From assembly GCA_963699545.1 (NCBI GenBank), contig CAVOUE010000004.1:96001-160000 (forward strand): a stretch of 64,000 nucleotides of DNA, given 5' to 3'. Both the position numbers and the translations under genes were made by a program. Source of the DNA: Nitrospirota bacterium (lineage in GTDB: Bacteria > Nitrospirota > Thermodesulfovibrionia > Thermodesulfovibrionales > UBA9159). The notes beneath the pieces are model-generated. The model saw only the letters and a list, made by a program, of their open reading frames with translations, was not told the origin of the DNA and searched no databases. The stretch's first letter is position 1. Every line of letters begins with the position of its first letter. Shown in pieces: positions 13,131 to 58,528 of this stretch.

Positions 13131-13287
13131 ACCCACTACGATATATGAAAACGCCGTTGATGTCAACTCTGAATGTCAACTATCTAACCCCCCGATGTCC
13201 TGCGATTTTTCTTCTCTTTCGAAACTGGGCCACAGGAAGTCGGTTGCGGTGCTATTTTTGCGGCAACCTGCGGAGAAGGATGGAGGT

Positions 13288-35661: not shown

Positions 35662-36063
35662 TTAGATACTGTGGATCAGATAGATCGCGAGGAAGACCCC
35701 TATGGCCAGGACCGACATGGTGAGGAGTATGTCAAGGATCAGAGAGGGCCGGTAGGTATCTTCATCTATTTGCCGCTCGACCTTCTTGTACCGGATGAAA
35801 GAGAGCACGCCCATGAAGGTGCCGAGAAACACGAGGAATATTCCAAAGAATGAAGAATAACCTGTCGGCGGAGCCGCGGGCGTTTCTTTCCCGATGAAAT
35901 ACGACACCTGTTTGAGGAAGAGGGCGAACTTCTCCACAACGAAACCGAAAGCCATGATCCCTATGCTTGTCCTTATCCACGCCAGGAAAGTCCTTTCGTT
36001 CGCCATGTGAACACGGCGGTTAAGGACCTTCGGCGATTCTTTCCCTTCAGTTCTCACCGGCAT
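35662..36063 (-). CDS. YidH/DUF202 membrane protein
   Basis: MANERTFLAWIRTS plus three TMs. Confidence 0.9.
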   Translation of the reverse strand: MPVRTEGKESPKVLNRRVHMANERTFLAWIRTSIGIMAFGFVVEKFALFLKQVSYFIGKETPAAPPTGYSSFFGIFLVFLGTFMGVLSFIRYKKVERQIDEDTYRPSLILDILLTMSVLAIGVFLAIYLIHSI

Positions 36064-36135
36064 ACTGGTTCTCCCCTGGATGTGCCATCCCCGACAACAG
36101 GAAGCTCTTGCCAAAGTGTCTGTAAGAGAATTATT

Positions 36136-37734
36136 TCATTGTCTCTCAAGGAGTGCATACCTTCCGTCCTCATCAAGTACATGAAAGCCCAATTGCGTAA
36201 GTCCCGCAACTTCTTTTGCCTTTGTGATCAGCAGCAATCTGCCGACCCGTGCAAGAAAGGGCTTCATCTCATCCCTGTTCCCGACCCTCACGATCCTCCG
36301 GTCCGAATAAAAGACGATGCTCGGATTGTTGATCCCGTAAACGATGATCTTCTCTTCCCTGTTCAGTCTCTCCCTGGCGTAAAGGCTGTATTTGTGCAGC
36401 GTGCCCTGAAGCTGTCGGTTAGCCATGGGCAAGGCCTTTACAGAGAGGAGCAGGAGGAAGGTGACCATCATCAGCGCTATGAGACCATAGAGCGCCCTCC
36501 CGGTAACAGCGGCGTACATGCAGATGAGTGCCAGGGCACAGGCCATAAGACCTGCGGGAAGTGTCCAGCCGGCATCGGAGATCCCGAATGTCATGAGATA
36601 TTTTTCAGAGATCAAGAAGGCAATGCCTATGGCAACCATTATAACAGCAATGCCGGCGTTTGCATATTTTCTCCACCTCCCGTTTGCTGCCATGCCTGCA
36701 GAGATGAGGATGACCGCAGCAGGTATCGCAGGGAGAATATAATTGGGGAGCTTTGTCGTTGACACGGAAAAAAAGAGGAACACGAAAGAGAACCATGTCA
36801 GGGCAAACAAATCTAGTGCCGCCCAATGATTGAGGAGCGAGGAGTTCTCTTCCGGCGGGCGCTTGACTGTCATCCGCAACTTGGTGCGGTCCTTCAACCC
36901 TTGTCTGATCCCCGCGGGCAGAAAGGCGACCCAGGGCAAAAGTCCCGCGATGAGGACGGGGACGTAGTAATAGAAAGCCCCCTTGTGGCCTGATATGACA
37001 CCTGTGTAGCGCTTGAAATGATGTTTGATGAGGAACTGCTGGATGAATTCATTGCCGTTTATTTTGAGCTGTGCAATGTACCATGGAGCCGAAAGCGCCA
37101 GGAAGAGGAGGACCCCCGGTGCGCTGAATACCCGTTTCGTCCCCTTCACCCCCTCTGTGAGCAACAGATATGCGACCGCGACCCCAAAGGGGAAGAGGAT
37201 GCCTATGAGCCCCTTTGTGAGAAAGGCAAGGGCCGAAAAGACATAGAGTCCGTAAATGTACCTGCGCGCACCTTCCCGTGATTCGAGCGAAAGGAAGAAA
37301 GAGAAAAGGGCGAGCGCTATGAAAAGGGCCAATGCCATATCCGTGACGGCTGCATGGGAATATACAAGAAAGCACACCGAAAGACTCAGGGAGAGGGCAG
37401 CGTAAGAAGCCCGTTCCGTGTCGCGGAAATGCCTGACAAAGAGGAAAAGTGTCAGACAGAGGAGAAAACCGGAGAGGGCAGAGGGAAAACGAGCACCGAA
37501 CTCGTTGACGCCGAAGACCTTGTATGAGACCGCCATCAGCCAGTAAAAGAGGATGGGTTTGTCATAGCGGTTCTCGCCGTTATACGTCGGGGTTATCCAG
37601 TCACCGCCTTCGACCATCTCCTTTGTTGCCTCGGAGAAGACAGCCTCATCAACATCAAAGAGGGTGGCGGAACCAAGCCCGAAAAAGGACATGAGAAGAG
37701 CGATGGCAACGAGAGGCAAGAGGAATTTTGTCAT
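36136..37734 (-). CDS. ArnT/GT39-like glycosyltransferase
   Basis: DVDEA, DKPILFYW, LTKG, TKLPNYILP. Confidence 0.88.
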   Translation of the reverse strand: MTKFLLPLVAIALLMSFFGLGSATLFDVDEAVFSEATKEMVEGGDWITPTYNGENRYDKPILFYWLMAVSYKVFGVNEFGARFPSALSGFLLCLTLFLFVRHFRDTERASYAALSLSLSVCFLVYSHAAVTDMALALFIALALFSFFLSLESREGARRYIYGLYVFSALAFLTKGLIGILFPFGVAVAYLLLTEGVKGTKRVFSAPGVLLFLALSAPWYIAQLKINGNEFIQQFLIKHHFKRYTGVISGHKGAFYYYVPVLIAGLLPWVAFLPAGIRQGLKDRTKLRMTVKRPPEENSSLLNHWAALDLFALTWFSFVFLFFSVSTTKLPNYILPAIPAAVILISAGMAANGRWRKYANAGIAVIMVAIGIAFLISEKYLMTFGISDAGWTLPAGLMACALALICMYAAVTGRALYGLIALMMVTFLLLLSVKALPMANRQLQGTLHKYSLYARERLNREEKIIVYGINNPSIVFYSDRRIVRVGNRDEMKPFLARVGRLLLITKAKEVAGLTQLGFHVLDEDGRYALLERQ

Positions 37735-37742
37735 GAAGTGAG

Positions 37743-37913
37743 CTATTTCTCTAACTTCTTCTTATCTTCCGCAGGGTCTTCTTCCATTCCTTTCTTGAAT
37801 CCTCTTATGGCTTCCCCGATGCTCTTTCCAAGGGACGGAAGTTTACTCGGTCCGAACATCACAAGGGCGATGACCAAAACAACCACCAGTTCCGGTAATC
37901 CAAGGCCAAACAT
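37743..37913 (-). CDS. tatA: Twin-arginine translocase TatA
   Basis: MFGLGLPEL...FGPSKLP..GKSIG..IRGFKK. Confidence 0.93.
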   Translation of the reverse strand: MFGLGLPELVVVLVIALVMFGPSKLPSLGKSIGEAIRGFKKGMEEDPAEDKKKLEK

Positions 37914-38034
37914 ATATCCTCCTTTTCCACTGCGCGTTGGCAGAACGGCATGTTTAGTATACACGTTAAGGCGTTGCTATTGGCACAAAAAAAGTTCGGG
38001 AGTCTCTTTTCATGCCTGACAGTGAGGGTTCCCA

Positions 38035-40626
38035 TCAGTGGCAGTACCTCCCTTCCAGGAAATCCCTTGCATACCGTTCGGCGGTCCGGTCGTCGTGCAG
38101 TTCGGCATCCAGCTGCCGTGTATACGCGATAAGCCTGCCCAACTGGTCAAGGATGACTTCCATCTCCTCCTTTCTCAGGTTCGCGATGCGCGCGATGAGA
38201 AGATCCCCTTTGGCGCTCACAGAAAAGCCGTATTCTTTTAAGACAGTGGAGATAAGGCCCACCCTTCGGGATCGTTTCGTAATGTCCGTAGCGCCCCCGG
38301 CAAAGCGGAAATAGATGTGATTGTTTCTGGCAGTCTCACTGCAGAAGGAGTCTACGACCGTGAAATGGTAACCGAATCTCAGATTCAGGTTCGCATAGTC
38401 CTTTGACGCCACCGCCAGGTTGTATGGCGCGTGAGCTCCCGCATCCGTTACGATATCAGGCATCCTCATCATGCTTGAGAGAAAGTCGTTCACTTTGAGA
38501 GAGACCGTTGTGGACTTCCAGACGCCGGGGGAGATCAGGCCCGTGACAATCGCCCGCAAGGGAAGCGAAGTGATGCCATCAAGGGTCACACTGCTCTTCT
38601 TTTGGGTGTCCAGCGCCCCCCCGATATCGACGACCACGATCTCTGCAGGTACCGGAATATCAAGTCTTACTGCGATCTGACCGCGCACCTTTGGCTCCTG
38701 TGCGTTCTCGACGAGCTCTGTCACTGCCTTCTCATGGATGAACCGGATGATGTCGTGAATGGTTTTGCACCCTTCCGGAGTGAAGTCGTCCATCAATGGG
38801 TCTACAAGATTGAGGGGGGCGATATACCTGAGAATATATCTCTTCTTCCTGAACTCGTGGAGATTCTCCATTCTCGCAGAACGTGCGGCAGCGCTCTCAA
38901 GGAGTTCTTTTCTTATTCCCCGGTATAGTGCAGCGTTGCCTTCGTCGTCCGCATCAAGAGTGATCTCCTCTCCATGGACAAGGACGACCGTCGCGTTGCC
39001 GGTGTTCACCACAGTGGGGACCTTGAACTCCCTGCAGAGGGATGCCATATGGCTCGTGGGTGTTCCAATGTCGGTTACGATGGCCGAGACATAAGGCATG
39101 ACCCGCACATAATCAGAAGAATCGTGCGCCGCTACGAGTACCGCTCCTTTGGGGAACAGGTCAAGTTCTTCGGGATGTCTTGCGATGAAAACTTTGCCGG
39201 CGCCAATACCTCGCTGAATGACGACGCCTGGATCCCGGGTCAGAACCTTTGCATTGGAAGGGCCATCTGCAGTTTCATCCAGGCTGCCCCTCCGGGACAG
39301 CCGGAGAGCGGATAATGAAGAAACAGCCGTTTCGTCCACCTTCAGAGGCCGCGTCTGAAGGATAAATATCTTTCCTTCCCTGTCGACGGCCCATTCAATG
39401 TCCTGTGGCTTCCTGAAATGTCTTTCGATGAGGATCGCCTGCCTCGCAAGTTCTTTGGCCTGCTCCCGGGTCAGGCTCTGCCTCATCTTCAGGTCGTCGG
39501 GAGTTTGTATCGTCTCAATCCCCGATTCTTTCCCTTCGATTGTCATAACCTCTTTGCCACCCGTCTTACTGTCAACGATCTCAGGGTCCGCCGTCTTCTC
39601 CAGTACGTAAAGGTCTGCATCGGAACGCCCCTCAACTACGGTGGAGCCGAGTCCCCATGTGGCATTGATAAGCACCATGTTCGGATCGCCAGCCGGATGA
39701 GAGGAGTACATTACGCCGCTGGTCGCCGCATGGACCATGACCATGCATCCTACCGCCATCTTCATCTGTCCCAGGGGATAGCCCGATTGCCGCTGATAGG
39801 ATAGAGCTCTTGGAGAAAAGAGACTGGCCACTACCTGCCGGTACGCTTCAATGACCGCACTACGTTCAAGGGGAACGTTCAATCTTGTTTCGAACTGGCC
39901 GGCAAAGGAGAAGTCGGTGTCCTCTTCCTCAGCGCTGCTTCTCACCGCGAGAAAACAGTTTTCGCTGCAGCGCGCCTTCATTCCTTTCAGTGCCTGTTCG
40001 ATGGCGTTGCCCAATTGTGACGGGATTTCAGCAGTGAGGATGGAATCATGAAGTTCCCTTAGCGCAGCGTCAGTGGTTTCCTTGTCTGTGAGCGTCTCGA
40101 TCTTTCTGTCCAGGTGGTTGTGCCTCATGAATACGTCATAGGCAGCGGTTGTCAGAACAAAGGCCGCCGGAACGTCGAGGCGCAGGTAATTTCTTACCTC
40201 AGCAAGGTTGGCGTTTTTTCCCCCAACGGCGTGGCTGTTGTCCCATGAAATGTTGTCATAAAAAACGACCATTTCACCGGGGGATGGGATATCGAAGATC
40301 ATTCTTCTGATCCGGTCGTCGATACGGTCGACCGCGTCGTGAAGGTGGGGATATTTCTCTTGCGTGAGGAGATCGAAGTTGAGCAGGGAATCACCCAGCG
40401 CCGTGGAAAGTTCCGAGTAGGCCTTCTTTACATAGGAGATGTCAAAGAGATAATCTCCCCCGAGTTTATCACCGATATCGGTGATGATCTCCAGAGCACG
40501 GTTGTTCTTCTCAAGGACCTCCTTGAAATGCCCAAAGAGAAGGTCAAAGGGCAGGATACTCCCCCTCATGCGGCGTCCAGGCCACATCATCTTCTTCAAT
40601 CGCCCTGCAAACTTATTCACCGTCAT
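38035..40626 (-). CDS. PEP-synthase-like dikinase (ATP-grasp plus phospho-His domain, atypical C-terminus)
   Basis: GGKNANL, AVRSSA, FAGQF, DIEWA, ILQTRP, TSHMASLCRE. Confidence 0.85.
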   Translation of the reverse strand: MTVNKFAGRLKKMMWPGRRMRGSILPFDLLFGHFKEVLEKNNRALEIITDIGDKLGGDYLFDISYVKKAYSELSTALGDSLLNFDLLTQEKYPHLHDAVDRIDDRIRRMIFDIPSPGEMVVFYDNISWDNSHAVGGKNANLAEVRNYLRLDVPAAFVLTTAAYDVFMRHNHLDRKIETLTDKETTDAALRELHDSILTAEIPSQLGNAIEQALKGMKARCSENCFLAVRSSAEEEDTDFSFAGQFETRLNVPLERSAVIEAYRQVVASLFSPRALSYQRQSGYPLGQMKMAVGCMVMVHAATSGVMYSSHPAGDPNMVLINATWGLGSTVVEGRSDADLYVLEKTADPEIVDSKTGGKEVMTIEGKESGIETIQTPDDLKMRQSLTREQAKELARQAILIERHFRKPQDIEWAVDREGKIFILQTRPLKVDETAVSSLSALRLSRRGSLDETADGPSNAKVLTRDPGVVIQRGIGAGKVFIARHPEELDLFPKGAVLVAAHDSSDYVRVMPYVSAIVTDIGTPTSHMASLCREFKVPTVVNTGNATVVLVHGEEITLDADDEGNAALYRGIRKELLESAAARSARMENLHEFRKKRYILRYIAPLNLVDPLMDDFTPEGCKTIHDIIRFIHEKAVTELVENAQEPKVRGQIAVRLDIPVPAEIVVVDIGGALDTQKKSSVTLDGITSLPLRAIVTGLISPGVWKSTTVSLKVNDFLSSMMRMPDIVTDAGAHAPYNLAVASKDYANLNLRFGYHFTVVDSFCSETARNNHIYFRFAGGATDITKRSRRVGLISTVLKEYGFSVSAKGDLLIARIANLRKEEMEVILDQLGRLIAYTRQLDAELHDDRTAERYARDFLEGRYCH

Positions 40627-40988
40627 CTGATCAGTGCACGCCGTATGGAGGCCTTCAACTCCTTGATCTTGACGGGTTTTGGAAAGAAATCATGCACTTC
40701 CGCCCTCAATGCCTCTATGGCGGCGTCAAGATTTGCAAAGGCTGTTATCATGATGACCCTGGTTTCGGGGTAAAGTTGCTTCACTGTCCGCAGGACCTCC
40801 ATGCCGTCTATGCCCTTCATTTTGAGGTCTGTGACCACAACGTCAAATTTCTGATCCTTTAAGCGCGCAAGTGCCGGCTCGGCATTCACGAACGTTTCTA
40901 CCGTGTATCCGTCCTGCTCAAGTGACATCTTCGCCATATCACCTACGATTTTTTCATCGTCGATGACCATAATCCTGTACGTGCTCAT
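40623..40988 (-). CDS. Single-domain response regulator
   Basis: IDDE, TDLKM, ITA, KP. Confidence 0.93.
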   Translation of the reverse strand: MSTYRIMVIDDEKIVGDMAKMSLEQDGYTVETFVNAEPALARLKDQKFDVVVTDLKMKGIDGMEVLRTVKQLYPETRVIMITAFANLDAAIEALRAEVHDFFPKPVKIKELKASIRRALIR

Positions 40989-40997
40989 CTTTTCCTC

Positions 40998-42391
40998 CTA
41001 AGTTTTAAGGACCGGCAGCTCGATGGTGAAAGCGGTTCCGGTTCCCACGGTGCTCTCCACCCTGATGGTGCCTTTATGATTTTTTATTATTCCGTAGCTC
41101 ACGGACAGTCCCAGGCCTGTTCCCCCCACGCCCTTTGTGCTGAAGAAGGGATCAAATACGTGTGGCAGGAACTCGGCGGGTATGCCTTTGCCCGAATCCT
41201 TCACCACCACCTCCACCGCTTCCCTGCTTTTTTCATATCGCGTTGCAACTGACAATTCTCCCCCGGGTGACATTGCCTGGACGGCGTTCACCATGAGATT
41301 TACGAGGACCTGCTGCATCTGGTGGTCGTCCACGCGGACCCGGGGCAGTGCCTGTTGCCAGGGACAATTTCGTTTCAATTTTGGAGATGTCGAGCATATT
41401 CTGCACCAGCGCAAGCCCTTTGCGTACGACCCCGTTGATGTCGGTTTCCTGCAGGTTCGCCTCTTTCGGCTTCGAAAAATCAAGAAGGTTTTTCACGATC
41501 TTCCGTATCCTCTCTGTTTCCCCCTCCACCTTGTCCATGAAATCGAGTCGCTCCTCCCTGCTCAGCCTGTCGTAGAGTTCACTGTATGTCTGCGCGACCA
41601 TCGAAATGTTGTTCAGGGGGTTGGTGAGCTCATGGGCAACGCCGGCGGTGAGAATGCCGAGAGACGCCAGCTTCTTGGACTGTATGATCTCCTCTTCCCT
41701 GTTCCTGAGTTCGTCGGACATGAGATTTATCGCCTTCATCACCGAGCCGAGCTCGTCGGCAGACCTGGGGTTCTCGATCTTCCTGAAATTCCCTTCAGAT
41801 ATCAACAGGGCGAGCCGCTCGATCTCTCTCAGGGACCGAACGATCTTCTGGGAAATCAGATGGCTGATAATGACCGCAGAGAAGAGGACGGCCCAGAAGG
41901 AATAGAACAATGTCTTCTTTGCACCCGAAATGATATCATTGACCCGTTTTCTTTCCAGAATGGTAATGGTCTCGGAGAACTCCTTCAGTTTTTTCCCCTC
42001 TTCCCTGAGCTTTGTTCTCCAGTTGGACGTTTTCCGCGTTTCTTCTCACGTCCTCCACCGTGTCGGAATATCTTCCCAGGTGCGCGAGCAGCTGCCGGAG
42101 ATTGTCTTCACCGATGGCCCTGGATATGTCGTCGCTCACCCCGCCGATCGACTCCCGCGTACTATTTATCTTGTTCTTTATGTCGAAGAGGGCTGATTCA
42201 TCCCGGTAGAGGAAATAGTTCTTTTCCGAAAGCCGCATCTCAAGAAAGGAGGCGTTCAGGTCGTCGGCGATCTCCACAAACCTCAGCTTTGTGAGGATGA
42301 GATTGAGGCTCTGTATGGCAAAGAGACCTATGAGCACGATGAGAGCCATATTGAAGATGTTGGAAAGTACGATCTTTCGTTCGATCTTCAT
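40998..42391 (-). CDS. HAMP sensor histidine kinase (split into three frames)
   Basis: EMRLSEKNYFLY, DELG, AHELTNPL, GTGLGL. Confidence 0.85.
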
Positions 42392-42395
42392 GGTC

Positions 42396-43661
42396 TTAGT
42401 CTTTCATCTCCGCGGGAACAGGGCACCGGGGGACCTCAGACTGCTCTCTTCTCACCGGCAGGTACCACAGTACCCCGTCCGCAGTCATGCATATGCCTGC
42501 CACAATGAGCAGAGAATCCAGCACCGTTAGTATGCTGAAGCCGAAATACTGCACAAGGCCGAGTCCAAGACTCAGGAAGGAGATGCCCGAACGGATTAAT
42601 GAGAGCCCGGTCCTTGCCCGGGACTGGAGCGTGCGATAACATGCGGCCACGGTGCGCTGCCCTGCCAGGACATTCCTCTCCCGGGCAAGATGGGTGCGCT
42701 CCCTGCTCGCAGGGGACGGGTAGAGTATGGTGGAGTGGCCCGCAAGAAAATCGCCAAGACGCCCGAGCATCGTCTTTTTTGTGGGGACTGCTGTGCCCGC
42801 CTGCTCGATAAAATGATAGTCTTCAAGGAAATGCAGGGTCGCTGCCGTGACTTCCACAAGGGTCTGATGCCCCGGCGGTCTCATTCTAGATCTCCTCACC
42901 TTGAGATAGACGAACAGGCCGTAAGCGCCGATGGAAAAGCCCGCAGCCATCAGCAGCCAGAAGAGAGAAGACGTCGGCAGCAGCCGGTGGGCGCGAACAA
43001 GGGTGTCAGCCATGGCGATCATGCCGAGTCCCCACCTGAGAAGTGCAAGGCCCGTTCTCCCCTTTGCAAGGTCGTTTCTGTAGCATGCGAGCCTGGTCCT
43101 CCACTGGGCCATCGTATTGCGCCAGAAGGCCAGAGCGGTTCTTTCAGTTCCTATGAGGCGTCCCGGTTTTGCATGGAGGAAATCCTGAATGAACCACTCG
43201 ATATCCTCTCCGAGGGCCACTGAGAATTCATACTTCCCTGCCTTGATCGACCTTTTGACCTCATCCCGTACCCCGGGATCTTCGGGATTGTTTGCAACAA
43301 TGACCACCATCTCCCCGTGCCTTATTAGCGGGAACCACTGGCTCATGAAAAGCCTGTCACTGTCAAGTCCCGATAACAGTCCTGGCGGTACCGGCATTCT
43401 CTCATCATATTCCACAAAAGGACATTGATGATGTTCTGAAAGTGCCTGCAGCAGGGCACGGCGGGGAACATGGCAGTCTTTCAAGAGTATCTTCTCAAGG
43501 TCAATCCCTCTCGCCGCAGCCGCATCTTCTGCCCCACGAAGCTCCTTCTCCGTCAGGATGCCCCGGTCCAGCAGAGGGAGAAACCTTTCCGCCTGGGCAC
43601 TCCAGGCGGTTTCCTCCTGGTGAATCCTCGCCGCAGTCCTTGTCACATCAAAGTTCTTCAT
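42396..43661 (-). CDS. T2SSE_N-domain protein with two DUF202-like units
   Basis: PilB-N-like LSEHHQCPFVE..WFPL..ANNP; two RTxLA-heptad/TM units. Confidence 0.75.
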   Translation of the reverse strand: MKNFDVTRTAARIHQEETAWSAQAERFLPLLDRGILTEKELRGAEDAAAARGIDLEKILLKDCHVPRRALLQALSEHHQCPFVEYDERMPVPPGLLSGLDSDRLFMSQWFPLIRHGEMVVIVANNPEDPGVRDEVKRSIKAGKYEFSVALGEDIEWFIQDFLHAKPGRLIGTERTALAFWRNTMAQWRTRLACYRNDLAKGRTGLALLRWGLGMIAMADTLVRAHRLLPTSSLFWLLMAAGFSIGAYGLFVYLKVRRSRMRPPGHQTLVEVTAATLHFLEDYHFIEQAGTAVPTKKTMLGRLGDFLAGHSTILYPSPASRERTHLARERNVLAGQRTVAACYRTLQSRARTGLSLIRSGISFLSLGLGLVQYFGFSILTVLDSLLIVAGICMTADGVLWYLPVRREQSEVPRCPVPAEMKD

Positions 43662-45303
43662 GGCGAAAAACCACCTTTCCCCAATCACACGTGGGTCGGC
43701 CGTAATCAGGGACAACAATCTCCATATCGCCGAAACAATAGGGAAACTGCCCTTTTATTTCGTCTGCCGGGACATGCCAGTGGAGCCCGTCCGCCACGAG
43801 CGCGAGCCCGGCTATGATCAGAAAAGAATCGAAGAGTGTCCATGCGATGTTCCCGGTGCCGAAATATGCCAGAAGTGCCAGCCCCACGCCGGATATGCTC
43901 ATTCCGGTCCTAATGAAAGCCATTCCTGTCCTTGAGCGGGCCATGACCGTGCGGAGTCGTGCCATCACGTTTCTCCTCTCCGCAAGGACGGTCCTTTCAA
44001 GGGCTAATCCCGTTGTTGCCCAGATGCCGGGTGAGCAGGGCCTTGTCAGGGGAAGTGGGGATGATATCCCTTCACCATCGTGTCTTTTGTGAGCAGCGGG
44101 AAAGACAACGTCCCAGATCGTTGTTTTCTCCCCTGTCCTGATGACCGATGCAAAGCTGTCCCTGCCTGCCCGCCGCCCGGGGAGATACCAGTAAAACCCT
44201 TCCATGAGCATCAAAGAGCCCGTAAGGATAAGGGCCGCATAGAAAATCGTCCAGAGGCCCCCGGGGAACTGCCTCAACAGCGCAATCCCAAGTCCGGCGA
44301 AAGCGATCCCCGTCCGTGTAAAAGCAAGTCCTGTGCGGGCGCGTGCCATGATTGTCCGGTAGCATGAAAGGCTTGTCCTTTCCTCAGCGAGATCGGTCCT
44401 GTCGCTGGCCAGGAACCTGCGCCTCATCACCGGTGAAAGATCGCGCCAGCCGGTGCGCAGTACATCTGCACCTTCCACCTGTTCTGTTCTGGTAAACACA
44501 GGGTCACTCCCGGGATTTGAGACTCCGAGGACAGTCGTGCCCCCTGTGGACTCGGTGGAAGCACAATAGAGTTTTTTCCCGGAGATCTTTCTGGCAGGGA
44601 CATACCAGACAAGGCCGTCGACAGTCATAACGACACCAGCCGCGAGAAGCAGGGCCTCAAATATGGTGAGATATCCGATCCCCAAGATTCTCAAGAGCAC
44701 AAGGGCGACTGCCATAAAAGATACGCCTGTGCGGATGAATGCAAGCCCTGTCCTTCCCTTTGACAGGGACGTCCGGTAACATGCCATGAGTGACCGCCTT
44801 TCCGCGAGGAATGTCCTTACCTTGGCGAGGGGCGTCCTGCCCCCCGAGGGAGGAAAATGGGGATTCAGATCATAGCTGTTTTCGATGATCCTGATGAGAT
44901 CAGAGGGCAGGGCAACAATGTAGTCGATCCGGCCAACCTGCAGGGTCTTTCTGATGTCCTCAACCACCAGAGGGTCATCCGGATCATATGTAATTACTTC
45001 AGCCCGTTCCTCCGTCACGGACAGCGGAAACCAGAGGGCGCTTTTTTGCCGCTCCATATCCATGCGTTTGGTGATGAAGTGGGAGGCCGCAATATTCTCG
45101 TCATACTCCATGAAGGGATAGCCGTAATACTCGGACAGGCAGAAGAGCACTTCATGTTTCGGGAGCCCGTGGCCGATCAACACGTCCTCGGGGTATTGCC
45201 CGGAATCTTCAGCTTCCTTCATCAGCCTTTCGAACTCCTCTGACGTAAGAAGTTCCTTTCTTAAGAGTCTTTCAAACTTCCTTTTTTTCATTGTGTTGCA
45301 CAT
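43648..45303 (-). CDS. T2SSE_N-domain protein with three DUF202-like units
   Basis: LSEYYGYPFME..WFPL..YDPDD; three RTGLAFxRTG-type units. Confidence 0.75.
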   Translation of the reverse strand: MCNTMKKRKFERLLRKELLTSEEFERLMKEAEDSGQYPEDVLIGHGLPKHEVLFCLSEYYGYPFMEYDENIAASHFITKRMDMERQKSALWFPLSVTEERAEVITYDPDDPLVVEDIRKTLQVGRIDYIVALPSDLIRIIENSYDLNPHFPPSGGRTPLAKVRTFLAERRSLMACYRTSLSKGRTGLAFIRTGVSFMAVALVLLRILGIGYLTIFEALLLAAGVVMTVDGLVWYVPARKISGKKLYCASTESTGGTTVLGVSNPGSDPVFTRTEQVEGADVLRTGWRDLSPVMRRRFLASDRTDLAEERTSLSCYRTIMARARTGLAFTRTGIAFAGLGIALLRQFPGGLWTIFYAALILTGSLMLMEGFYWYLPGRRAGRDSFASVIRTGEKTTIWDVVFPAAHKRHDGEGISSPLPLTRPCSPGIWATTGLALERTVLAERRNVMARLRTVMARSRTGMAFIRTGMSISGVGLALLAYFGTGNIAWTLFDSFLIIAGLALVADGLHWHVPADEIKGQFPYCFGDMEIVVPDYGRPTCDWGKVVFRHEEL

Positions 45304-45429
45304 CTCTCGACGAAATTAGTCGGCAAAGAAGCAGAGTGGTCAGGAGGGGAAGGTCATAGCGGCTTTCCGATACCTGGTGCTGGTCCTTTGTGATTCTCTT
45401 ATCCTTCGATCACCGGGTCTGTATCGGGC

Positions 45430-45507
45430 TTATGTTCTATCGGGTCTTTTTCCTCTATCTGAAATGGTCTTTCTCAATCCCCTGATGCCCTTTCCAAGCC
45501 CCTCGCC
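45430..45507 (-). pseudogene. tatA: tatA remnant lacking start and TM
   Basis: GEGLGKGIRGLRK amphipathic-helix motif. Confidence 0.5.
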
Positions 45508-45531
45508 GGGCGTGTTGTCAGCCCGAGGGGG

Positions 45532-46431
45532 TCACTTCACCACGAGGATGGGACAGGCGGCATGGGTAATTACCCGTTCTGTGCTGCTGCCCATGATCGC
45601 CTTGTTCACGCCGCTCCAGCCGCATGTTCCCATAACGATGAGATCATTTCCCTGCCTGCCTGCGGTCTCAACTATCTTGTCTCCGGCGTGTCCCTGTTCC
45701 ATGACCGTTGTTATGGACACGCCCTCTCCTGAGGCCAGCTCTTTCGCCTTGTCCAGAATCTTTTGCGCCTCCGCGTGAAGGCTTTTCTCTATGGAAGCGG
45801 TCCTGAAGAACTCCACCATCTCCTCATACCGGGGGATCACGTAGATCGCGGTAATCTCAGCACCATCGAGTTTCGAAAGCTCACAGGCCCTCTTAAGGGC
45901 CTTTTTGCTGAAGTCCGAGCCGTCAAAGGGGACGAGAATGGACCCGTATGTGCCCGTGCATTCAGTACAGGGCTTCTTCACCACGAGGACATCAGTGGTG
46001 GAATTGATAATGACATGGGACGTCACGCTGCCCATGAGGAGTCTGTTCAGTCCCTTCCTCCCGTACGTGCCCAATACAATAAGGTCCGCCTCTTTCCCCT
46101 TTGCGACATCAACAATGACCGTGGGCGGATCGCCCTCGCAGAGCAATGATTGCACTTCTACTCCCCATCCCGACGTGAGCATTTCCTTTGTCTGGACGCA
46201 GACCTTTTCTCCGATCTTGAGACGCTTGTCCAGCTGGTCCGGAGCTATTCCGAATTCCTCTTCATCAAAGAACACCGCATGCACGAGGATGATCTTCCCC
46301 CCGTGCCTCTTGATCCAGTGCGCGGCCTCGGTGAGCGCCGCCTTGCTGGAAATGGATTCATCAAAACCAACGACGATATTCTCATATATGGTGTTCACCG
46401 CTTTATCCACCTGCTGTGCAGATATTCTCAT
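45532..46431 (-). CDS. Tandem universal stress protein
   Basis: Two USP domains (IVLGTYGRKG..MGSV; MGSS..CPILVV). Confidence 0.93.
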   Translation of the reverse strand: MRISAQQVDKAVNTIYENIVVGFDESISSKAALTEAAHWIKRHGGKIILVHAVFFDEEEFGIAPDQLDKRLKIGEKVCVQTKEMLTSGWGVEVQSLLCEGDPPTVIVDVAKGKEADLIVLGTYGRKGLNRLLMGSVTSHVIINSTTDVLVVKKPCTECTGTYGSILVPFDGSDFSKKALKRACELSKLDGAEITAIYVIPRYEEMVEFFRTASIEKSLHAEAQKILDKAKELASGEGVSITTVMEQGHAGDKIVETAGRQGNDLIVMGTCGWSGVNKAIMGSSTERVITHAACPILVVK

Positions 46432-46463
46432 TTTCTTCCGGGGTACGCAAGGGACCCTGCGTA

Positions 46464-47273
46464 TTAGTGCGCCCCGCCTCCTTTCCTGAATACCATGCCT
46501 ACACCGAAACCGGCAGCCAAGGCTGCCATGATCGAGACGATGCCATACAGCGCCCCGTTATTTCTTGCCATGCCCGCGAGGGACTTTACCATGCCGACCT
46601 GCTCCACAGAGACGTGGGTCTCTGCGGTTTCGACCACCTTGTGGTTCTTCACCGCGTATACGGTGATCGTGTAATCGTCCGGACGCGCCTGATAGGGCCA
46701 GTCCAGGAGCACGTAATAGTTCTGACTCCCGTTGTTTTCCGTCAGGTTGATCTTCCCGGATGTCACCGAGTAAAGGGATGACGACTCCTTGAATTTTACG
46801 AACTCACCAAACCACTTCTCTTTTTCTCCCGCATCGGCCACGGGTTCCATTTCAGCATGTTTCGCCAGGGCCGGGTACCCGATCACCTTCTTGTCCATCT
46901 CATCAGTGCTCAGGATGTCCTCGATCTTCCTTGTGCTGTGAAGGGAATAAAGGTTCGGCACCTTGTTAAAGGTCAATTGTCCCACATTCATCCATAACAC
47001 TCCTGCCACCTTGCCCTTCTTGCGCAAGGCCTGTTCCCCTTCAGCAGAAGCGATCTTGATGATAAGGTCAGTGCCGGGATCGGATACGCCTCTCACGCTC
47101 ACTGAACCCCCGTGGTAGAAAAAGTCGATCGAGATATGGTCATGATTTGCCTTTGCGGTGAGTTGCGCCGACGCCCTGTCGGACACGATGAACGTTGACA
47201 GCAGGCAAAGAATGACGGTGCTGAACCATAAAGGTACGTTGAACATTGAACGTTGAACGTTGCAGTTTTCCAT
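46464..47273 (-). CDS. TIGR02186-like membrane protein (TauE partner)
   Basis: Signal, RKKGKVAGVLWMN, C-terminal TM; TAATG coupling to TauE gene. Confidence 0.75.
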   Translation of the reverse strand: MENCNVQRSMFNVPLWFSTVILCLLSTFIVSDRASAQLTAKANHDHISIDFFYHGGSVSVRGVSDPGTDLIIKIASAEGEQALRKKGKVAGVLWMNVGQLTFNKVPNLYSLHSTRKIEDILSTDEMDKKVIGYPALAKHAEMEPVADAGEKEKWFGEFVKFKESSSLYSVTSGKINLTENNGSQNYYVLLDWPYQARPDDYTITVYAVKNHKVVETAETHVSVEQVGMVKSLAGMARNNGALYGIVSIMAALAAGFGVGMVFRKGGGAH

Positions 47274-48187
47274 TAGTGTCCTCCTCCCTGGTAAGAGCAA
47301 CGACGGGCTTAGGGTAAGATCAAAGACCATCTTTACAGTTACCAGAAGCACGATGCCTGCAAGGATTATCTTGAGCTGGTCTGCCTTGAGCTTCCGTCCG
47401 AAGACCGCGCCGACCTGGGCGCCTAAGGTTGAACCGATCAGAAGGAGTACTGCGAGGATAAAATCCACGCTGTGGTTCGTATAAGCCTGAAGAAAGGTGA
47501 CCTCAATGCAGTTAAAGAGGATCTGAAAAAGACTGGTGCCGACGACAACATGCATCGGCATCCTGAGGATATAGACCATCACAGGGACCATCAGAAAACC
47601 GCCTCCTACGCCCATGACAGCAGCAAGGATTCCGACAAAGCCTCCGAAGATGACCGGGACGAGCACGGAATGGGTGACCCCTGATTTTTCAAAACGGGTC
47701 TGCAGAGGAAGAGACTTAAGAAATTTCGCCATGCGCGATTCCTTCTCAGGTGCCGTGTCCTCGATCTTCTTTTTCTTCATGCTCTGAGGCTCTCGATAAA
47801 CATATAGGTGCCCACAATCCCGAGCATCAGCACATAGGTTATCTTTATGACAAAGTCCGCATTGCCCATGGCCTTGAGGATCTTTATGCCCTGGACGCCT
47901 GCAAGACCGCCGGCAAACCCCCCGACCAGGAGATAAAGCCCCATCTTGAAATCAACATTGCCGATCTTCCAGTGGGCATATGTCCCTGAGGTCGATGCAG
48001 CGACGATCTGGTTCGAATCCGTTGCAGCGGCAACGGTTGAGGGTATACCGAACATTATCAGAAGCGGTGTCATAAGAAAACCTCCGCCTACTCCGAAGAG
48101 GCCTGAGAGCAGACCGACTGCGAGGCCCAGCCCCACAGGGATTAAGACGTTAATACTTGTTAATGCTACCGGCAGATAAAGATACAT
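47273..48187 (-). CDS. TauE/SafE family transporter (frameshifts near 47785 and 47295)
   Basis: MYLYLPVA, GVGGGFLMTP, GVGGGFLMVP. Confidence 0.88.
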
Positions 48188-48209
48188 TTATATTCCTCCT
48201 TTTTTCGTT

Positions 48210-48700
48210 CTATGCGACATGCGCATTCTTTGCCATGGTGACAATCGGCCGTGACGCTGTTTTTACCAGCTTGTTAAGTACCTTTGCGTTGACATTCCCG
48301 TCATTGGTGACGCTCGGACTTAGAAGGACCATGTCGATTTTCGCGTTCTGTCTCAGGATATTTTTTATGGCTGAGATCGCGTCCATGGCTGCTGTGCTGA
48401 AATCAACGGCAATGCCTGACTTCGTGCACTTCTCTTTCAAAGGCCAATCTTCTTTTCATAGTCTTCGTTATTCTTTTTGTAGTCCTCACTGATCATTTCC
48501 CTTGCGGTTTTGTGCATGCCGGCCTCGGCAAAGGTGATTGCGGTCATCATGTCGTCGAATTTTTCGAGGACCTTCCTCTTGTAGATCAGCAGTATCTCGA
48601 TGCCGTCATTCATCGTCTTTGCGAGGTCCAGCGCATAGGAGAGACCGTCATCAAAGTTCTCGTCATGATACGTAACAAACAAAAGCTGATTTCTCTTCAT
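48210..48700 (-). CDS. USP-like hypothetical with TFAEAG motif (frameshift near 48440)
   Basis: Two abutting ORFs form one protein; MMTAITFAEAG. Confidence 0.65.
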
Positions 48701-48711
48701 TGTCTTCTCCT

Positions 48712-49131
48712 TTATGCTCCAACTACCAGGACAGGGCAGGGGGCCAGGTCAATGACTTTTTCGACGATATTTTTGCCGAACAGTCTGCTGAACCAGTTTG
48801 TCTTGTTGGTTCCCATGACTATCAGGTCGCATTTTTCATCTTCTGCAACCTCGACGATCTTCTCGGGGACCTCGCCTTCCTCCAGACGCGTCTTCACCAG
48901 GGCGCGTTCGGCCTTTGCAATATCACCTATTACGTGCGATCTCCTTTCTTGCCCCGTTGTCCAGCACGTCACCGATATTCCTGATACCGACAAGATTGAG
49001 ATCTCCCTCATTGGCGGGAACCACCTTTACCACAGTTACCCAGCATTTTTCGTCCTGGGCAAGCTTAATCCTTGGGTAAGGACGTCTTTTGAACCGTTTA
49101 CTGCTATAAGAATTTTTCTATAACCCTTCAT
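48712..49131 (-). CDS. Universal stress protein (frameshifted)
   Basis: MKGYRKILIAVNGS; CDLIVMG, APCPVLVV. Confidence 0.8.
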
Positions 49132-49164
49132 TTCGGCCTCCTCGCTAAATCTATGAGATGTAAT

Positions 49165-49180
49165 TGCAATGCTGATGCCA
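49165..49180 (-). promoter_or_regulatory. Sigma54 -24/-12 promoter
   Basis: TGGCATCAGCATTGCA, GG-N10-GC, 33 nt upstream of first gene. Confidence 0.75.
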
Positions 49181-49449
49181 AGATGTAACTCTATGATTTA
49201 TAGTGATAAAGTTGATTATTGCCTGACTTCAGCGTTTCATATTGGAACTGCGTTGAACAGCTGCTGATCGAAGCTTTGACCGGGCTTCGGTTTAAAAACC
49301 TTTTCATACCGGTGACTTGGCGACGAGGAAGTTCACGCTTCAAAAGGCACTTTAGCGGAAGTTCTGCCAAATTACCGTTTCAATTATGAACATCGTCCTG
49401 TCAGCCGGAAGGGTTGAGTCACATGCGTGATCTACGATAAGATAGACAA

Positions 49450-55629: not shown

Positions 55630-56961
55630 TTATTCCTCCTTGAGCAATCTCCAGAGGCTCGTTCTCGATATACCGAGGATCTCTGCCGCCTTTGATCTGT
55701 TGCCACCGACCGTCTCAAGGATCTTCTCGGCATAGTCCTTGTTCAGTTCGTCAATAGTCAGCACCTGGCCCGGCTCGCGAGTTTCGATCTGGAACATGGT
55801 GAGGCTCTGGGGCAGACTCTCCGGTGTGATCACAGGGGTCTTCTCCAGTATTATCGCCCTTTCGATGATATTCTCCAGTTCCCTCACGTTGCCGGGGAAG
55901 CTGTAGCGCATGAGGATCTCCATGGCCGGTTTCGCCATGCCCGTTATCTTTTTGCCCGACTTGGGAATGTGTTTCTGGAGCAGGTACGATGCAAGGGGTT
56001 CGATGTCGTCTTTTCTGTCCCTCAGTGCGGGAATGAATATCTCCATGACGTTCAGTCGGTAATAGAGGTCTTCCCTGAACCTGCCCTCTGAGATAAGGTT
56101 CTTTACCGGCTGATTCGTGGCAGCGACGAACCGCACATTCACCCTGATCGGCCTGGTCCCGCCCACTCTGTAGAATTCTCCCTCTTCGATCACCTTCAGG
56201 AGCTTTGCCTGGAGGTTCGGCGCCATCTCGGATATCTCGTCAAGGAAGAGGGTCCCCTGATCAGCGATCTCCACCAGTCCCTGTTTCGTCCTCACCGCGC
56301 CGGTGAAGGCCCCTTTTTCATGCCCGAAGAGCTCGCTGGCGAGGAGGTCTTCCGTCAGGGTCGCGCAATTGATCGAGAGGAAGGGCATGTTCTGCCTTCT
56401 GCTGGTAAAATGTATGATCTTGGCGAGGAGGCTCTTGCCGACCCCTGTTTCGCCGGTGAGCAGCACATTGCAGTCCGAGTCCTTTATCCCTTCAATGACC
56501 TCCAGGATCTTCTTCATGCTCTCGCTCTTGGCGATGACGGAGATCGTCTTGTTCATTCCGAAGTAGGCCTTCAATGCCACGTTTTCTTTCCTCAGGACCT
56601 TTCGCTCGTGGATGTTCTTGACCTTCAGGATGAGTTCGTCAAGGTCAAAGGGTTTGGTGATGTATTCGTAGGCGCCTTTTTTCATCGCCTCCACCGCCGC
56701 ACCGATGCTGCCGAAACCGGTCACGATCATTACCTCGATCTCCGGGTCTTTTTCCTTCGCCCTTTCGAGCAGTTCGATCCCGTTCATCTCGGGCATCCTG
56801 ACATCAGTGATGAGGACGTCGAAATCATCGCGCGTGATCTGCTCAAGGGCCTCACGTCCGTTGCGGGTGCCCGTCACGTCGTATCCTTCTCTCTTGAGAG
56901 TGTTGACGAGGTGCTTGAGGGTTATTTCCTCGTCCTCAGCGATAATTATCTTGAAATTCAT
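55630..56961 (-). CDS. Sigma54-dependent (NtrC/AtoC-type) response regulator
   Basis: Receiver, GETGVGK, GAFTGA, HTH. Confidence 0.95.
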   Translation of the reverse strand: MNFKIIIAEDEEITLKHLVNTLKREGYDVTGTRNGREALEQITRDDFDVLITDVRMPEMNGIELLERAKEKDPEIEVMIVTGFGSIGAAVEAMKKGAYEYITKPFDLDELILKVKNIHERKVLRKENVALKAYFGMNKTISVIAKSESMKKILEVIEGIKDSDCNVLLTGETGVGKSLLAKIIHFTSRRQNMPFLSINCATLTEDLLASELFGHEKGAFTGAVRTKQGLVEIADQGTLFLDEISEMAPNLQAKLLKVIEEGEFYRVGGTRPIRVNVRFVAATNQPVKNLISEGRFREDLYYRLNVMEIFIPALRDRKDDIEPLASYLLQKHIPKSGKKITGMAKPAMEILMRYSFPGNVRELENIIERAIILEKTPVITPESLPQSLTMFQIETREPGQVLTIDELNKDYAEKILETVGGNRSKAAEILGISRTSLWRLLKEE

Positions 56962-58528
56962 TACGGCCTTTCCCCCGACGGCAGCACGATGGTGAATGTT
57001 GTCCCCTTGCCCTCCGTGCTCTCCGCCCTGATGTCGCCCCCGTGCTTTTGTATGACGTTGAAGACAATGGCGAGACCGAGCCCCGTGCCTTTGTCTCTTG
57101 TAGTATAGAACGGCTCAAATATCTTTTCTATGGTGTCCGACGGGATTCCCGCGCCTGAGTCGGACACCCTGATTTCGACCACCTCTCCTTTTCGCTGCAC
57201 CGCAACCTTCAGTTCCCCGGAGCCGGACATGGCAGCGACGGCGTTCGTGAAGAGATTGATGAAGACCCTCTCCAGCTGCTCGCGGTCAGCAGAGACTCGT
57301 ATCCCTTCAGGCTCAGTTCTCCATGGTGAACGTTACCCGATAGGTGTCTGTGGCGGTACTGACAAGCTTGTACGCCCCCATGATCAGCTCGTTCAGTTCC
57401 ACTTCCACGAAGACAGGGTTCCTTCCCCTGGCGAATTCCAGGAGGTCGCCCACAATGCCCTTTACCCTGATGGTCTGGCCGACAATGTCGCCCACTGTCT
57501 CCCTGATCACGGGAGAGGGGGTCTCCCCTTGTTTCCCGGGCAAGTATCTGGGCCGAGATATAGATGTTATTGAGGGGGTTGTTCAACTCGTGGGCAACCC
57601 CTGAGGCCAGGGTCCCGATGGCTGCCAGTTTCTTGGTCTGGAGAAGTTCCTGGTTCTTCTTCTCTATCTCTGCCTCTCTCTCGGAGAGCTGCTCTTCCAT
57701 TCCATTGAATTTCCTCATCAGCATTCCCACCTCGTCACGCCCCGAGGGAACGGGCATTCTGGAGAAGTCCCCCTTTCCGGTCCTTTCCACCAGATCGATC
57801 ACTTCTCTCAGACGTTTTACCACATTGTTGCTTATCACAAAGAGCGTGCCGATCCCGAGTATCAGGAAAAAGGGGAAGAAGATGAGAATGGCGACCTGCG
57901 AGATGCGGATAACCCTTTCGACGTTCTCCCTCGCGACCTTATCGAGTTCCTTGGAAAAGACCAGGATGTCTTCGCCGTACTTTCTGAGGACGATTATGTC
58001 CGAATCCAATGTCCTCAGCGCTGTCAGCGTCTCATGATCGGGAGCGAGGGTGAAGACTTCTTTCAGGAACTCTTCAACCTTAAGGGGCTGTTCCAGAAAC
58101 GTTGATTCAAGGAGAGGAAAGACTCTGGCGTAACTCTTATGCGTTACCCTGAGATTCCGGAAATGTTCCGAGACACCCGCAGCGAGCAGCTCAATATGAT
58201 TAAATCGCCACTCATATTCGTGCAGGCTTTTCTTTAGCTGTGACAATTCGCCGGACTTATCCATGAAAAGATTTTCATTGATGATGCTGTTCAGCTCTGC
58301 GAGGTATCGGTGAAGTGCCTGTGATTCTCCCGGGGCAGGGCCGTAGAGGAAGAAATTCTTTTCATGTCTCCTGAGCTGAAGCGATTTGCTTCTTATGGTG
58401 TCAGTGACCTCCAGATACCTTATTTCGTTCCTGATCTCGATAAAATTGATGTATTCGAACACTGCAAGGGCGCCTATGACGAATGCACTGATGACAAAGC
58501 TGAGAGCTATCTTCTTCTTAAGTGACAT
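56961..58528 (-). CDS. HAMP sensor histidine kinase (frameshifts near 57540 and 57310)
   Basis: LRRHEKNFFLY, DEVG, AHELNNPL, GTGLGL. Confidence 0.87.

Follow-up and report, generated by a model that had tools for sequence, protein, structure and literature searches.

Could two adjacent bacterial genes, one carrying three copies and the other two copies of the same membrane hairpin, together encode a single five-membered ring? The question is raised by a 64,000-nucleotide stretch of DNA from a Nitrospirota bacterium (GTDB lineage Thermodesulfovibrionia; Thermodesulfovibrionales; UBA9159; contig CAVOUE010000004.1 of assembly GCA_963699545.1, positions 96,001 to 160,000), which we refer to as the window. 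Positions 42396-45303 of the window are filled by two open reading frames on the minus strand, here called genes A and B. An earlier note on this DNA had proposed that the 3 + 2 units of their products form one pentameric polyanion channel resembling that of the yeast VTC complex. Our analysis confirms the observation and partly supports its interpretation: A-B is a real, conserved family that we did not find described, and it is best read, on the basis of structure models, as an architectural variant of a DUF202/VTC-type five-module ring. To our knowledge, DUF202/YidH is a widespread bacterial membrane family that has no assigned function, and the pore subunits of VTC are its only understood members.

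Gene A most likely starts at 45291 (MKKRKF), and its homologues are almost all 545 to 550 amino acids long. The likely start of gene B is the ATG at 43661, with GGAAAGGTGG nine bases ahead of it. Both choices are small corrections to the start codons of the first reading. As that reading had it, the genes overlap (the first 14 nucleotides of gene B coincide with the 3' end of gene A, including its stop codon) and their products are paralogous (32% identity over 383 amino acids, E 2e-51 by BLASTP). The third unit of A also aligns with the second unit of B in BLASTP. The two proteins would be translated together, which is one step of an explanation that we hold, as a whole, at about an even chance.

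Each protein begins with a domain that Pfam assigns to MshEN, at 30.1 bits for A and 31 bits for B against a gathering cut-off of 23.1. The remainder is made of repeated units. Pfam recognizes DUF202 (PF02656) in three stretches of A (2.3e-12, 47.6 bits; gathering cut-off 23.4) and in two stretches of B, the latter at 17.4 bits and thus below the cut-off. A six-frame search of the genome with DUF202 gave three separate matches within gene A. Likewise, a purpose-built hidden Markov model of the unit, which is about 87 residues long, located three units in A (residues 151-235, 290-374, and 426-510) and two in B (173-257 and 321-406), in agreement with the count in the earlier note.

AlphaFold2 models of the single chains (pLDDT 81.5 and pTM 0.74 for A; 80.7 and 0.63 for B) give each unit a long helix of 49 to 56 residues, a loop of 4 to 8 residues, and a shorter helix of about 28 to 42 residues. 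Because two membrane helices per unit would leave both ends of the unit in the cytoplasm, several units can be strung in one chain. The most conserved feature of A and B in our alignments is the arginine ladder along the long helix. When the five units are aligned on the last ladder arginine, the rungs fall at offsets -35, -28, -21, -14, -7, and 0, an exact seven-residue spacing that bears out the heptad ladder of the earlier note. Heptad position a is arginine at 29 of the 30 ladder positions, the single exception being T426 in unit A3. Across alignments of 98 A and 99 B sequences, 26 of the 29 arginines are invariant, and R312, R433, and R461 of A, which make up the rest, occur in at least 90% of sequences.

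The other heptad positions are also constrained to different degrees. Over the ladders, position a is Arg in 97% of cases, b is Thr or Asn in 92%, d is Leu or Met in 87%, and e is Ala in 94%, and positions c, f, and g are variable. The five 36-residue ladders of the window proteins hold 41 Lys and Arg residues versus nine Asp and Glu residues. Downstream of the last ladder arginine lies a mostly hydrophobic stretch of about 17 residues, in which heptad position a at offset +14 is occupied by R in A1, A2, and B1, by V in A3, and by H in B2, with Tyr at +15 in A3 and B2. The second helix has a conserved Gly and, in four of the five units, a D/E-G pair near its cytoplasmic end. The unit without this pair, B1, is the most divergent and has invariant W180, N182, and W187. 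Further conserved Arg, His, and Tyr residues are found at the periplasmic ends of the units.

The number of units is a second conserved property. A unit model built from the A and B families themselves counted three units in all 120 of the closest A homologues and two units in all 120 of the closest B homologues. Among 24 loci drawn from species-representative genomes, A and B are present and adjacent in every case, and the intact 3 + 2 arrangement occurs in 19. Among the remaining five, no intact locus shows any other count: gene A is broken across reading frames in three (L013, L016, and L021), one is cut by the start of its contig (L022), and one (L024, 9995-12158) is degraded. The A-like gene of this last locus encodes a 394-amino-acid hybrid in which the ladder of unit 2 leads into unit 3's outer helix and tail. 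The B-like gene there ends inside unit 2, where it adjoins an unrelated gene on the opposite strand. Another hybrid, the cluster representative P0243, is a two-unit A protein in which unit 1 is joined to unit 2. Judged from their sequences, both hybrids look like products of recombination between repeats. The 3 + 2 stoichiometry, and with it the conserved total of five units that had been predicted, is fixed in intact loci.

Furthermore, the five units have separate histories. In a quick maximum-likelihood tree of 101 units and 16 single-unit outgroup sequences, the units sort into five groups, one for each position (SH-aLRT 92, 98, 99, 94, and 97). It follows that the five positions are older than the spread of the family and that they are not interchangeable. 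Among 107 further relatives recovered with a single-unit query, 70 have one unit, 12 have two, and 25 have three, whereas none has four or five.

We then modelled residues 140-547 of A together with residues 160-421 of B, each with its family alignment, at one stoichiometry. The median ipSAE was 0.70 (0.73, 0.67, and 0.70 in the individual runs), versus 0.00 for the best of three controls. In the calibration of the prediction tool, this mark is reached by 58 of 80 solved complexes and by 2 of 110 mismatched pairs, and passing it supports binding rather than showing it. The runs share at least 83% of their contacts, and the partner pLDDT is at least 64. In the predicted complex, the long helix of A1 (152-203) contacts that of B2 (321-372) and the long helix of A3 (429-476) contacts that of B1 (171-221), whereas A2 makes no contact with B. 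Such contacts are what one would expect if the hairpins close into a ring that runs A1-A2-A3-B1-B2.

At the modelled seams, one helix takes part through positions g, a, d, and e and the other through positions a, b, e, and f. Position a, the ladder arginine, is thus the only one that would face both neighbours, which would place the arginines on the axis of the ring. At the A1-B2 seam the two helices keep homologous register, pairing T174 with R343. Because repeated heptads invite register errors, the fine geometry of the ring is uncertain, and both the heteromer and its closure are properties of the model. In sum, the units match DUF202, their number does not vary freely among intact loci, and a five-fold arrangement is predicted, each of which the earlier note had made a point on which its proposal could fail.

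The relation to known DUF202 proteins can be followed within the window, where a stand-alone YidH encoded at 35662-36012 is a canonical member of the family (Pfam 1.6e-20). An hhalign comparison of the A family with this protein pairs KGRTGLAFIRT with NERTFLAWIRT and also pairs both helices that follow. More generally, the unit motif G-R-T-G-L-A-F-x-R-T-G aligns with N-E-R-T-F-L-A-W-I-R-T and is repeated upstream as additional heptads. Therefore, the canonical DUF202 signature, whose likeness to the units had been noticed from the letters, corresponds to the last two rungs of each ladder, and the other four rungs lengthen it towards the N-terminus.

Neither the A-family profile nor the window YidH, when searched alone against PDB sequences, found a VTC chain (E<=1 for the A-family profile). 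We therefore trace the link to VTC through canonical YidH. A bridging profile, A4, combined the five units of A and B with the window YidH, two relatives, and one other DUF202 protein. Against solved chains, A4 matches Vtc1 (9umg_B, E 1.4e-4; 8i6v_A, 1.6e-4; 7ytj_A, 2.2e-4) and weakly matches Vtc4 (E 0.5-0.8), and its alignment sets K24 and R31 of Vtc1 on ladder rungs -14 and -7. According to PMC9911596, the VTC complex is a 3:1:1 pentamer with three membrane helices per subunit, and its channel is formed by five TM1 (first transmembrane) helices. The same paper states that the upper part of the channel is lined by K24 and R31 of Vtc1 together with their basic counterparts in Vtc3 and Vtc4, and that these residues are required for vacuolar polyphosphate. 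A table in PMC7283521 gives diatom Vtc1-3 as DUF202 proteins with three membrane helices.

Fold searches with the whole A and B models (Foldseek pdb; VIA) listed no VTC chain, although queries of 547 and 421 residues are ill-suited to a 90-residue module. Their helical parts matched designed toroids and barrels, syntaxin-type bundles, and ABC-exporter helices with Z scores of up to 10.8 and 10.9, a range that is common for helical repeats. By Pfam, neither the TTM/CYTH polyphosphate polymerase domain nor the SPX domain was found in A, B, or ten neighbouring proteins.

The ladder module also exists outside the A-B pair. P0316, P0323, P0328, P0372, and their relatives carry 10 to 20 or more unbroken xRTxLAx heptads ahead of a single hairpin, and the source names of such relatives include Acidobacteriota, Desulfomonilaceae, and Thermoleophilia. 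A query with P0328 gave 852 matches at E<=0.001, and some A- and B-type proteins are among the matches listed. A metagenome scan with P0372 gave one locus (L025), in which a three-helix DUF202 protein with a short ladder lies beside unrelated genes. Among the 120 matches listed, eight are proteins in which a receiver domain (PF00072) is fused C-terminally to a ladder and single hairpin (P0420, P0422, P0424, P0435, P0464, P0475, P0476, and P0478), which speaks for a functional connection of the ladder module with phospho-signalling.

The N-terminal domains of A and B each resemble the N-terminal domain of MshE (5htl_B) by VIA, with Z 14.3 in both cases (root-mean-square deviation 3.2 over 138 aligned residues for A, and 3.4 over 139 for B). 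Foldseek matches the N-domain to PilF GSPII-B and MshE (E 8.6e-5 to 2.3e-4), and both domains also match the N-domains of PilF, XpsE, and PilB by fold. The earlier note had aligned both N-termini with the PilB encoded in the window. Pairwise BLAST bears this out for A (22% identity, E 7e-5). The match of B is not significant (E 4.3), and the assignment of its domain to the MshEN type is supported by Pfam and by fold. The PilB-type ATPase itself (T2SSE plus MshEN) is encoded at 11277-13166 on the minus strand.

The known ligand of the MshEN fold is bound through a specific motif. According to PMC5013675, the cyclic di-GMP (c-di-GMP) site consists of two tandem 24-residue motifs, RLGxx(L/V/I)(L/V/I)xxG(L/V/I)(L/V/I)xxxxLxxxLxxQ. 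A relaxed form of this pattern, as defined in the same paper, matched no N-domain among 98 of the A family and 99 of the B family, whereas it matched the window PilB once, at 13034, as a positive control. The NCBIfam model of the motif (NF053729) scored 15.6 bits on B against a cut-off of 38 and did not match A. Searches for the T2SSE ATPase domain (PF00437) found it in the window PilB and in neither A nor B, and TIGR02538 gave 22.3 and 18.1 bits for the two proteins against a cut-off of 675. As far as their sequences tell, these GSPII-fold domains either never possessed the known ligand site or have lost it. Their more likely role is to dock a protein partner, and they may also gate the complex, as had been suggested.

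The coordinates of the two genes, their parts, and the neighbouring genes are collected in Table 1. Running with transcription, the window presents a sigma54-like element, fragments of universal stress protein (USP) genes, TauE, Alph_Pro_TM, a tandem USP, A, B, a HAMP histidine kinase, a receiver-only response regulator, and a PpsA-like dikinase. The dikinase, TauE, and USP neighbours are as the earlier note had listed them.

Table 1. Features of the A-B locus, with positions in the window
Feature	Position	Strand	Details
Gene A, 547 amino acids	43648-45291	minus	MshEN-like N-domain, three Arg-ladder DUF202-type hairpins, and conserved C-terminal tail
A N-domain, residues 1-145	44857-45291	minus	MshEN/GSPII fold without c-di-GMP motif; Pfam 4.9e-7; VIA
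Unit A1, residues 151-237	44581-44841	minus	Ladder R152,159,166,173,180,187; inner helix 152-203, outer helix 209-237
Unit A2, residues 287-388	44128-44433	minus	Ladder R291,298,305,312,319,326; helices 287-341, 347-388
Unit A3, residues 426-515	43747-44016	minus	T426, then ladder R433,440,447,454,461; helices 428-477, 482-515
A C-terminal tail, residues 516-547	43651-43746	minus	QFPYCFGDMEI...; partly contacts B in the complex model
Gene B, 421 amino acids	42396-43661	minus	MshEN-like N-domain and two Arg-ladder hairpins
B N-domain, residues 22-165	43167-43598	minus	MshEN/GSPII fold without c-di-GMP motif; Pfam 2.5e-7; VIA
Unit B1, residues 173-259	42885-43145	minus	Ladder R174,181,188,195,202,209
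Unit B2, residues 318-408	42438-42710	minus	Ladder R322,329,336,343,350,357
HAMP histidine kinase, directly downstream of B	40998-42391	minus	Three reading frames here; one intact 462-amino-acid frame in L001
Receiver-only response regulator, 121 amino acids	40623-40988	minus	
PpsA-like dikinase	38035-40626	minus	ATP-grasp and mobile His domain, residues 118-582; overlaps receiver gene by 4 nucleotides
Tandem universal stress protein, upstream of A	45532-46431	minus	
TauE/SafE-type permease (split here) and Alph_Pro_TM domain	46464-48187	minus	
Sigma54-type near-consensus -24/-12 match	49166-49180	minus	TGGCATCAGCATTGC; upstream of USP fragments and TauE

Among the 24 loci, the kinase lies downstream of B in 20 (by its first segment) and, in more divergent form, in L023. 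The loci without it either end at B (L008 and L013) or are degraded (L024). The receiver, which has no output domain, follows the kinase in 19. The dikinase occurs in 16, including L023, where it lies upstream of A, and it is absent from the three Desulfobacterota-type loci long enough to show it (L012, L020, and L022). The TauE, Alph_Pro_TM, and USP genes are found upstream of A in 12 to 15 loci. From this survey, the conserved core of the cluster is A-B-kinase-receiver. Residues 118-582 of the dikinase match phosphoenolpyruvate synthase (2ols, E 4.6e-59) far below the equivalog cut-offs. Its C-terminal 280 residues received no domain assignment, and the ESM Atlas gave only unnamed "PEP-utilizing enzyme family" clusters for them.

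Several genes around A-B are broken in the window. The frame of the histidine kinase changes near 41990-42012 and 41350-41492, which reflects either a pseudogene or indel errors in an assembly of 13 contigs that is 86.9% complete. TauE is split at 47777-47780; its halves abut in one frame in L002, L007, L019, and L021. Its C-terminal half is fused to Alph_Pro_TM in the window and lies in a different frame from it in L001 and others. Three short USP-like fragments occupy 48210-49011 on the minus strand. The broken TauE and USP genes at 46464-49011 are the result of either decay or assembly indels. Downstream of the dikinase, a PMT_2-type glycosyltransferase gene and the stand-alone YidH gene (35662-37734, minus strand) form a pair that recurs in the closest loci reaching that far (L002, 17604-19619; L019, 18878-21475).

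The earlier note had also placed A and B in a probable sigma54 operon. What stands of this claim is the -24/-12 match upstream of the USP and TauE genes, to which a strict sigma54 consensus corresponds at the equivalent place in L002, L007, L013, L019, and L021. A loose sigma54 pattern is not enriched in the whole window (65 matches versus 53.6 expected). Scans of 37800-49400 for sigma70-type promoters and intrinsic terminators stayed at chance level, with none on the minus strand between the USP gene and A. A query for transcript data listed none for the 2.9-kb stretch of A and B. An NtrC-type sigma54 activator (REC, Sigma54_activat, and HTH_8) and a HAMP/HisKA kinase are encoded 6 to 9 kb upstream (55630-56961 and 57209-58528, minus strand) and are candidate regulators of the sigma54-like element.

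If the cargo were polyphosphate, polyphosphate kinases (PPKs) might be looked for in the same genomes. At 1e-20, the A profile matched in 83 of 301 genomes sampled across the phylum of the window. Among these 83, we read 52 (including the window genome) as carrying a true A-type protein with E 7.4e-76 or better, and the other 31 match by the N-domain only, those listed sitting in open frames of about 770 amino acids. The B-like matches listed in this search adjoin an A match. PPK1 (PF02503) was detected in 50 genomes of the sample, only 2 of them carriers, and PPK2 (PF03976) in 90 genomes, none of them a carrier; neither kinase is detectable in 50 of the 52. Neither was found in the window genome, which is 86.9% complete, or in five carriers that are 90 to 100% complete. 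Among five carriers outside the phylum, clear PPK1 and PPK2 are present only in the L017 genome, with a marginal partial PPK2 in two others. We considered the absence of these kinases as a signal specific to carriers and rejected it: whole families of the phylum lack both regardless of A-B, so this is a clade pattern rather than a specific anticorrelation.

Our preferred explanation, to which we give about an even chance, is that A and B form a 1:1 inner-membrane ring of five hairpins with an arginine core. Its most likely task would be to conduct an anion or a thin linear polyanion under regulation, or to bind it as a track. Once the two proteins have assembled, the 3 + 2 hairpins would close in the order A1-A2-A3-B1-B2. 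The five long inner helices would run parallel, the last third of each serving as the first transmembrane helix and the first two thirds forming a five-helix bundle that reaches about 5 nm into the cytoplasm. Arginine at position a would contact both neighbouring helices and so lie on the bundle axis, with Leu at d and Ala at e packing the helices. Six rungs of up to five arginines each would then lead on to a pore in the membrane, the homologue of the VTC TM1 ring. The two MshEN-fold domains at the cytoplasmic end are probably docking or gating modules rather than c-di-GMP receptors, and they are probably controlled by the adjacent histidine kinase and receiver-only regulator. The axial position of the arginines, the conduction of anions, gating by a phosphorelay, and the nature of the cargo are what we infer from the model and the gene neighbourhood.

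A number of observations weigh against this explanation. The A3-B1 seam is modelled one heptad off homologous register (R440-R181, R447-R188, and R454-R195), which may reflect the divergence of unit B1 or a slip of the predictor on a repeat. The passing score of the complex may itself reflect the predictor's memory of a solved complex of this kind, VTC being one. The units end where the third helix of YidH starts in the A4 alignment and have two helices each in the AlphaFold2 models, so each unit has two membrane helices versus three in YidH and Vtc1. About thirty like charges on one axis would need counter-ions, and the mostly hydrophobic transmembrane stretch after the last arginine means that the pore may be closed or may not exist. 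With respect to cargo, the case for polyphosphate is weakened by carriers that mostly lack PPKs; either these bacteria make no polyphosphate and the cargo differs, or they make it by another route. The pentameric polyanion channel of the earlier note survives as a modelled five-unit ring, with transport putative and polyphosphate in doubt as its cargo.

The variants in unit number are also awkward, and they feed a rival in which A and B do not form a 1:1 five-ring at all. P0243 and L024 break the three-unit count of A, and an A-type class of about 410 amino acids (P0408, P0427, P0430, P0451, P0458, and others, with source names in Thermoleophilia and Actinobacteria) has three units and the C-terminal tail of A without MshEN. 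Such proteins, like the use of one stoichiometry in the complex model, would suit homo-oligomers or another ratio, and 3 + 2 = 5 would be a coincidence of duplication history. We consider this unlikely, given that A and B are strictly adjacent and translationally overlapped, that unit counts are fixed and the five positions are separately conserved lineages, and that none of the 107 further relatives carries four or five units in one chain. In addition, both edges of A are predicted, at low expected error, to meet both edges of B. Far less probable, and largely refuted, is the notion that A-B serves type IV pili or type II secretion as an accessory, or that it is a c-di-GMP receptor. The Pfam and fold matches to MshEN and to the N-domains of MshE, PilF, and XpsE would fit such a role, and some B homologues are named "type II secretion protein" in databases. 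Against it stand the missing T2SSE ATPase domain, a c-di-GMP pattern that detects the window PilB and none of the A or B families, the low score with NF053729, and a conserved cluster that contains no pilus or secretion genes.

A somewhat stronger rival, though still a minority view in our estimate, casts A-B as a signalling device, in which the pair would be a membrane co-sensor or output module of the kinase and receiver and the five-ring only a scaffold. The ladder would then bind a cytoplasmic anionic ligand, such as a nucleotide, a sulfur oxyanion, or a compound resembling inositol phosphate, or else an acidic partner protein. The invariant A-B-kinase-receiver core, a receiver without an output domain, the receivers fused to single-unit ladder proteins, the largely hydrophobic membrane stretch beyond the last ladder arginine, and the lack of PPKs in most carriers all speak for this role. 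A transporter is favoured instead by VTC, in which the homologous helices make up a true translocation channel and transport depends on its basic residues (PMC9911596). The conserved Arg, His, and Tyr residues at the periplasmic ends of the units and the TauE-type anion permease genes conserved upstream in Nitrospirota loci point the same way. Finally, the ring explanation that we prefer has a bolder extension, which we consider decidedly unlikely. The A-B ring would be the bacterial equivalent of the VTC channel, perhaps of the type from which that channel arose, and would serve as a dedicated translocase. Inorganic polyphosphate or another thin linear polyanion would pass along a 5-nm arginine-cored tube of five helices and on through the membrane. 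In Nitrospirota, the clustered dikinase would feed in the chain, and the kinase and receiver would switch the system. If true, this would mean polyphosphate metabolism independent of PPKs in bacteria where neither PPK1 nor PPK2 is detected.

No described system with the A-B architecture came to light, in agreement with the earlier note. MshEN and DUF202 occur together in no paper found by full text, and the DUF202 papers listed contain, judging by their titles and the beginnings of their abstracts, none on this architecture. For YidH, the literature search returned only a D-alanine exporter screen that picked up the E. coli protein, which was not confirmed by transport assay (PMC10299036). A wider search for bacterial homologues of Vtc1, DUF202, or YidH gave nothing relevant. 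In databases, the homologues are named "DUF202 domain-containing protein," "YidH," or "type II secretion protein." What we believe to be new here is the seam pattern of the ring with its register caveat, the profile bridge from K24 and R31 of Vtc1 to the ladder, and the survey of PPKs.

A-B is an unusually testable case of a bacterial DUF202 system, since its 3 + 2 composition is encoded in the genes and its 29 putative pore arginines are obvious and invariant. The co-encoded regulators and the single-unit and receiver-fused relatives, which serve as natural comparisons, make it easier still. A structure would tell whether five helices can form a barrel around an arginine core and by what means the charge of that core is neutralised. 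If a polyanion were conducted, this would be the first function for a bacterial DUF202 protein and would be relevant to how the VTC channel arose. A new route of anion or polyphosphate handling in sulfur-cycling anaerobes without PPK1 and PPK2 could also come to light.

Among known systems, the N-domains of A and B have their closest counterparts in MshE, PilF, PilB, and XpsE (PF05157; PDB 5htl, 8pdk, 2d28, and 7lkm), which share the fold. Unlike these proteins, A and B have no ATPase after the domain, both of their 24-residue motifs are degenerate, and the domain is fused to a membrane module. In the membrane part, stand-alone DUF202 proteins such as YidH (PF02656) share with the units the signature (N/E)ERTxLAWxRT leading into TM1, followed by a TM2 with a conserved Gly, but they are single modules with three membrane helices and only two basic rungs. 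The single-unit ladder proteins P0316, P0323, P0328, and P0372 share the Arg-Thr-x-Leu-Ala-x-x heptad and a very similar two-helix hairpin. They differ in having much longer ladders, no MshEN domain, and in some cases a C-terminal receiver, and because each chain holds one hairpin, five chains would be needed for a similar ring.

The membrane ring of VTC (three Vtc1 with Vtc3 or Vtc2 and Vtc4; PDB 7ytj, 8i6v, and 9umg) is built, like A-B, from DUF202 membrane modules. Five modules surround one axis, as solved for VTC and as modelled for A-B, and both assemblies are asymmetric and composed of non-identical modules. In each, the first helix of every module bears basic residues seven positions apart, which face the channel in VTC. 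The differences are equally clear. A-B would be made of two polypeptides with 3 + 2 fused modules of two membrane helices each, whereas VTC has five separate subunits with three. The basic stripe amounts to five or six arginines per helix in A-B and would extend about 5 nm into the cytoplasm, versus two to four residues in VTC. Where VTC has a TTM/CYTH polymerase and SPX domains, A-B has MshEN-fold domains, and VTC is eukaryotic, whereas the hosts of A-B are bacteria that mostly lack both PPK1 and PPK2.

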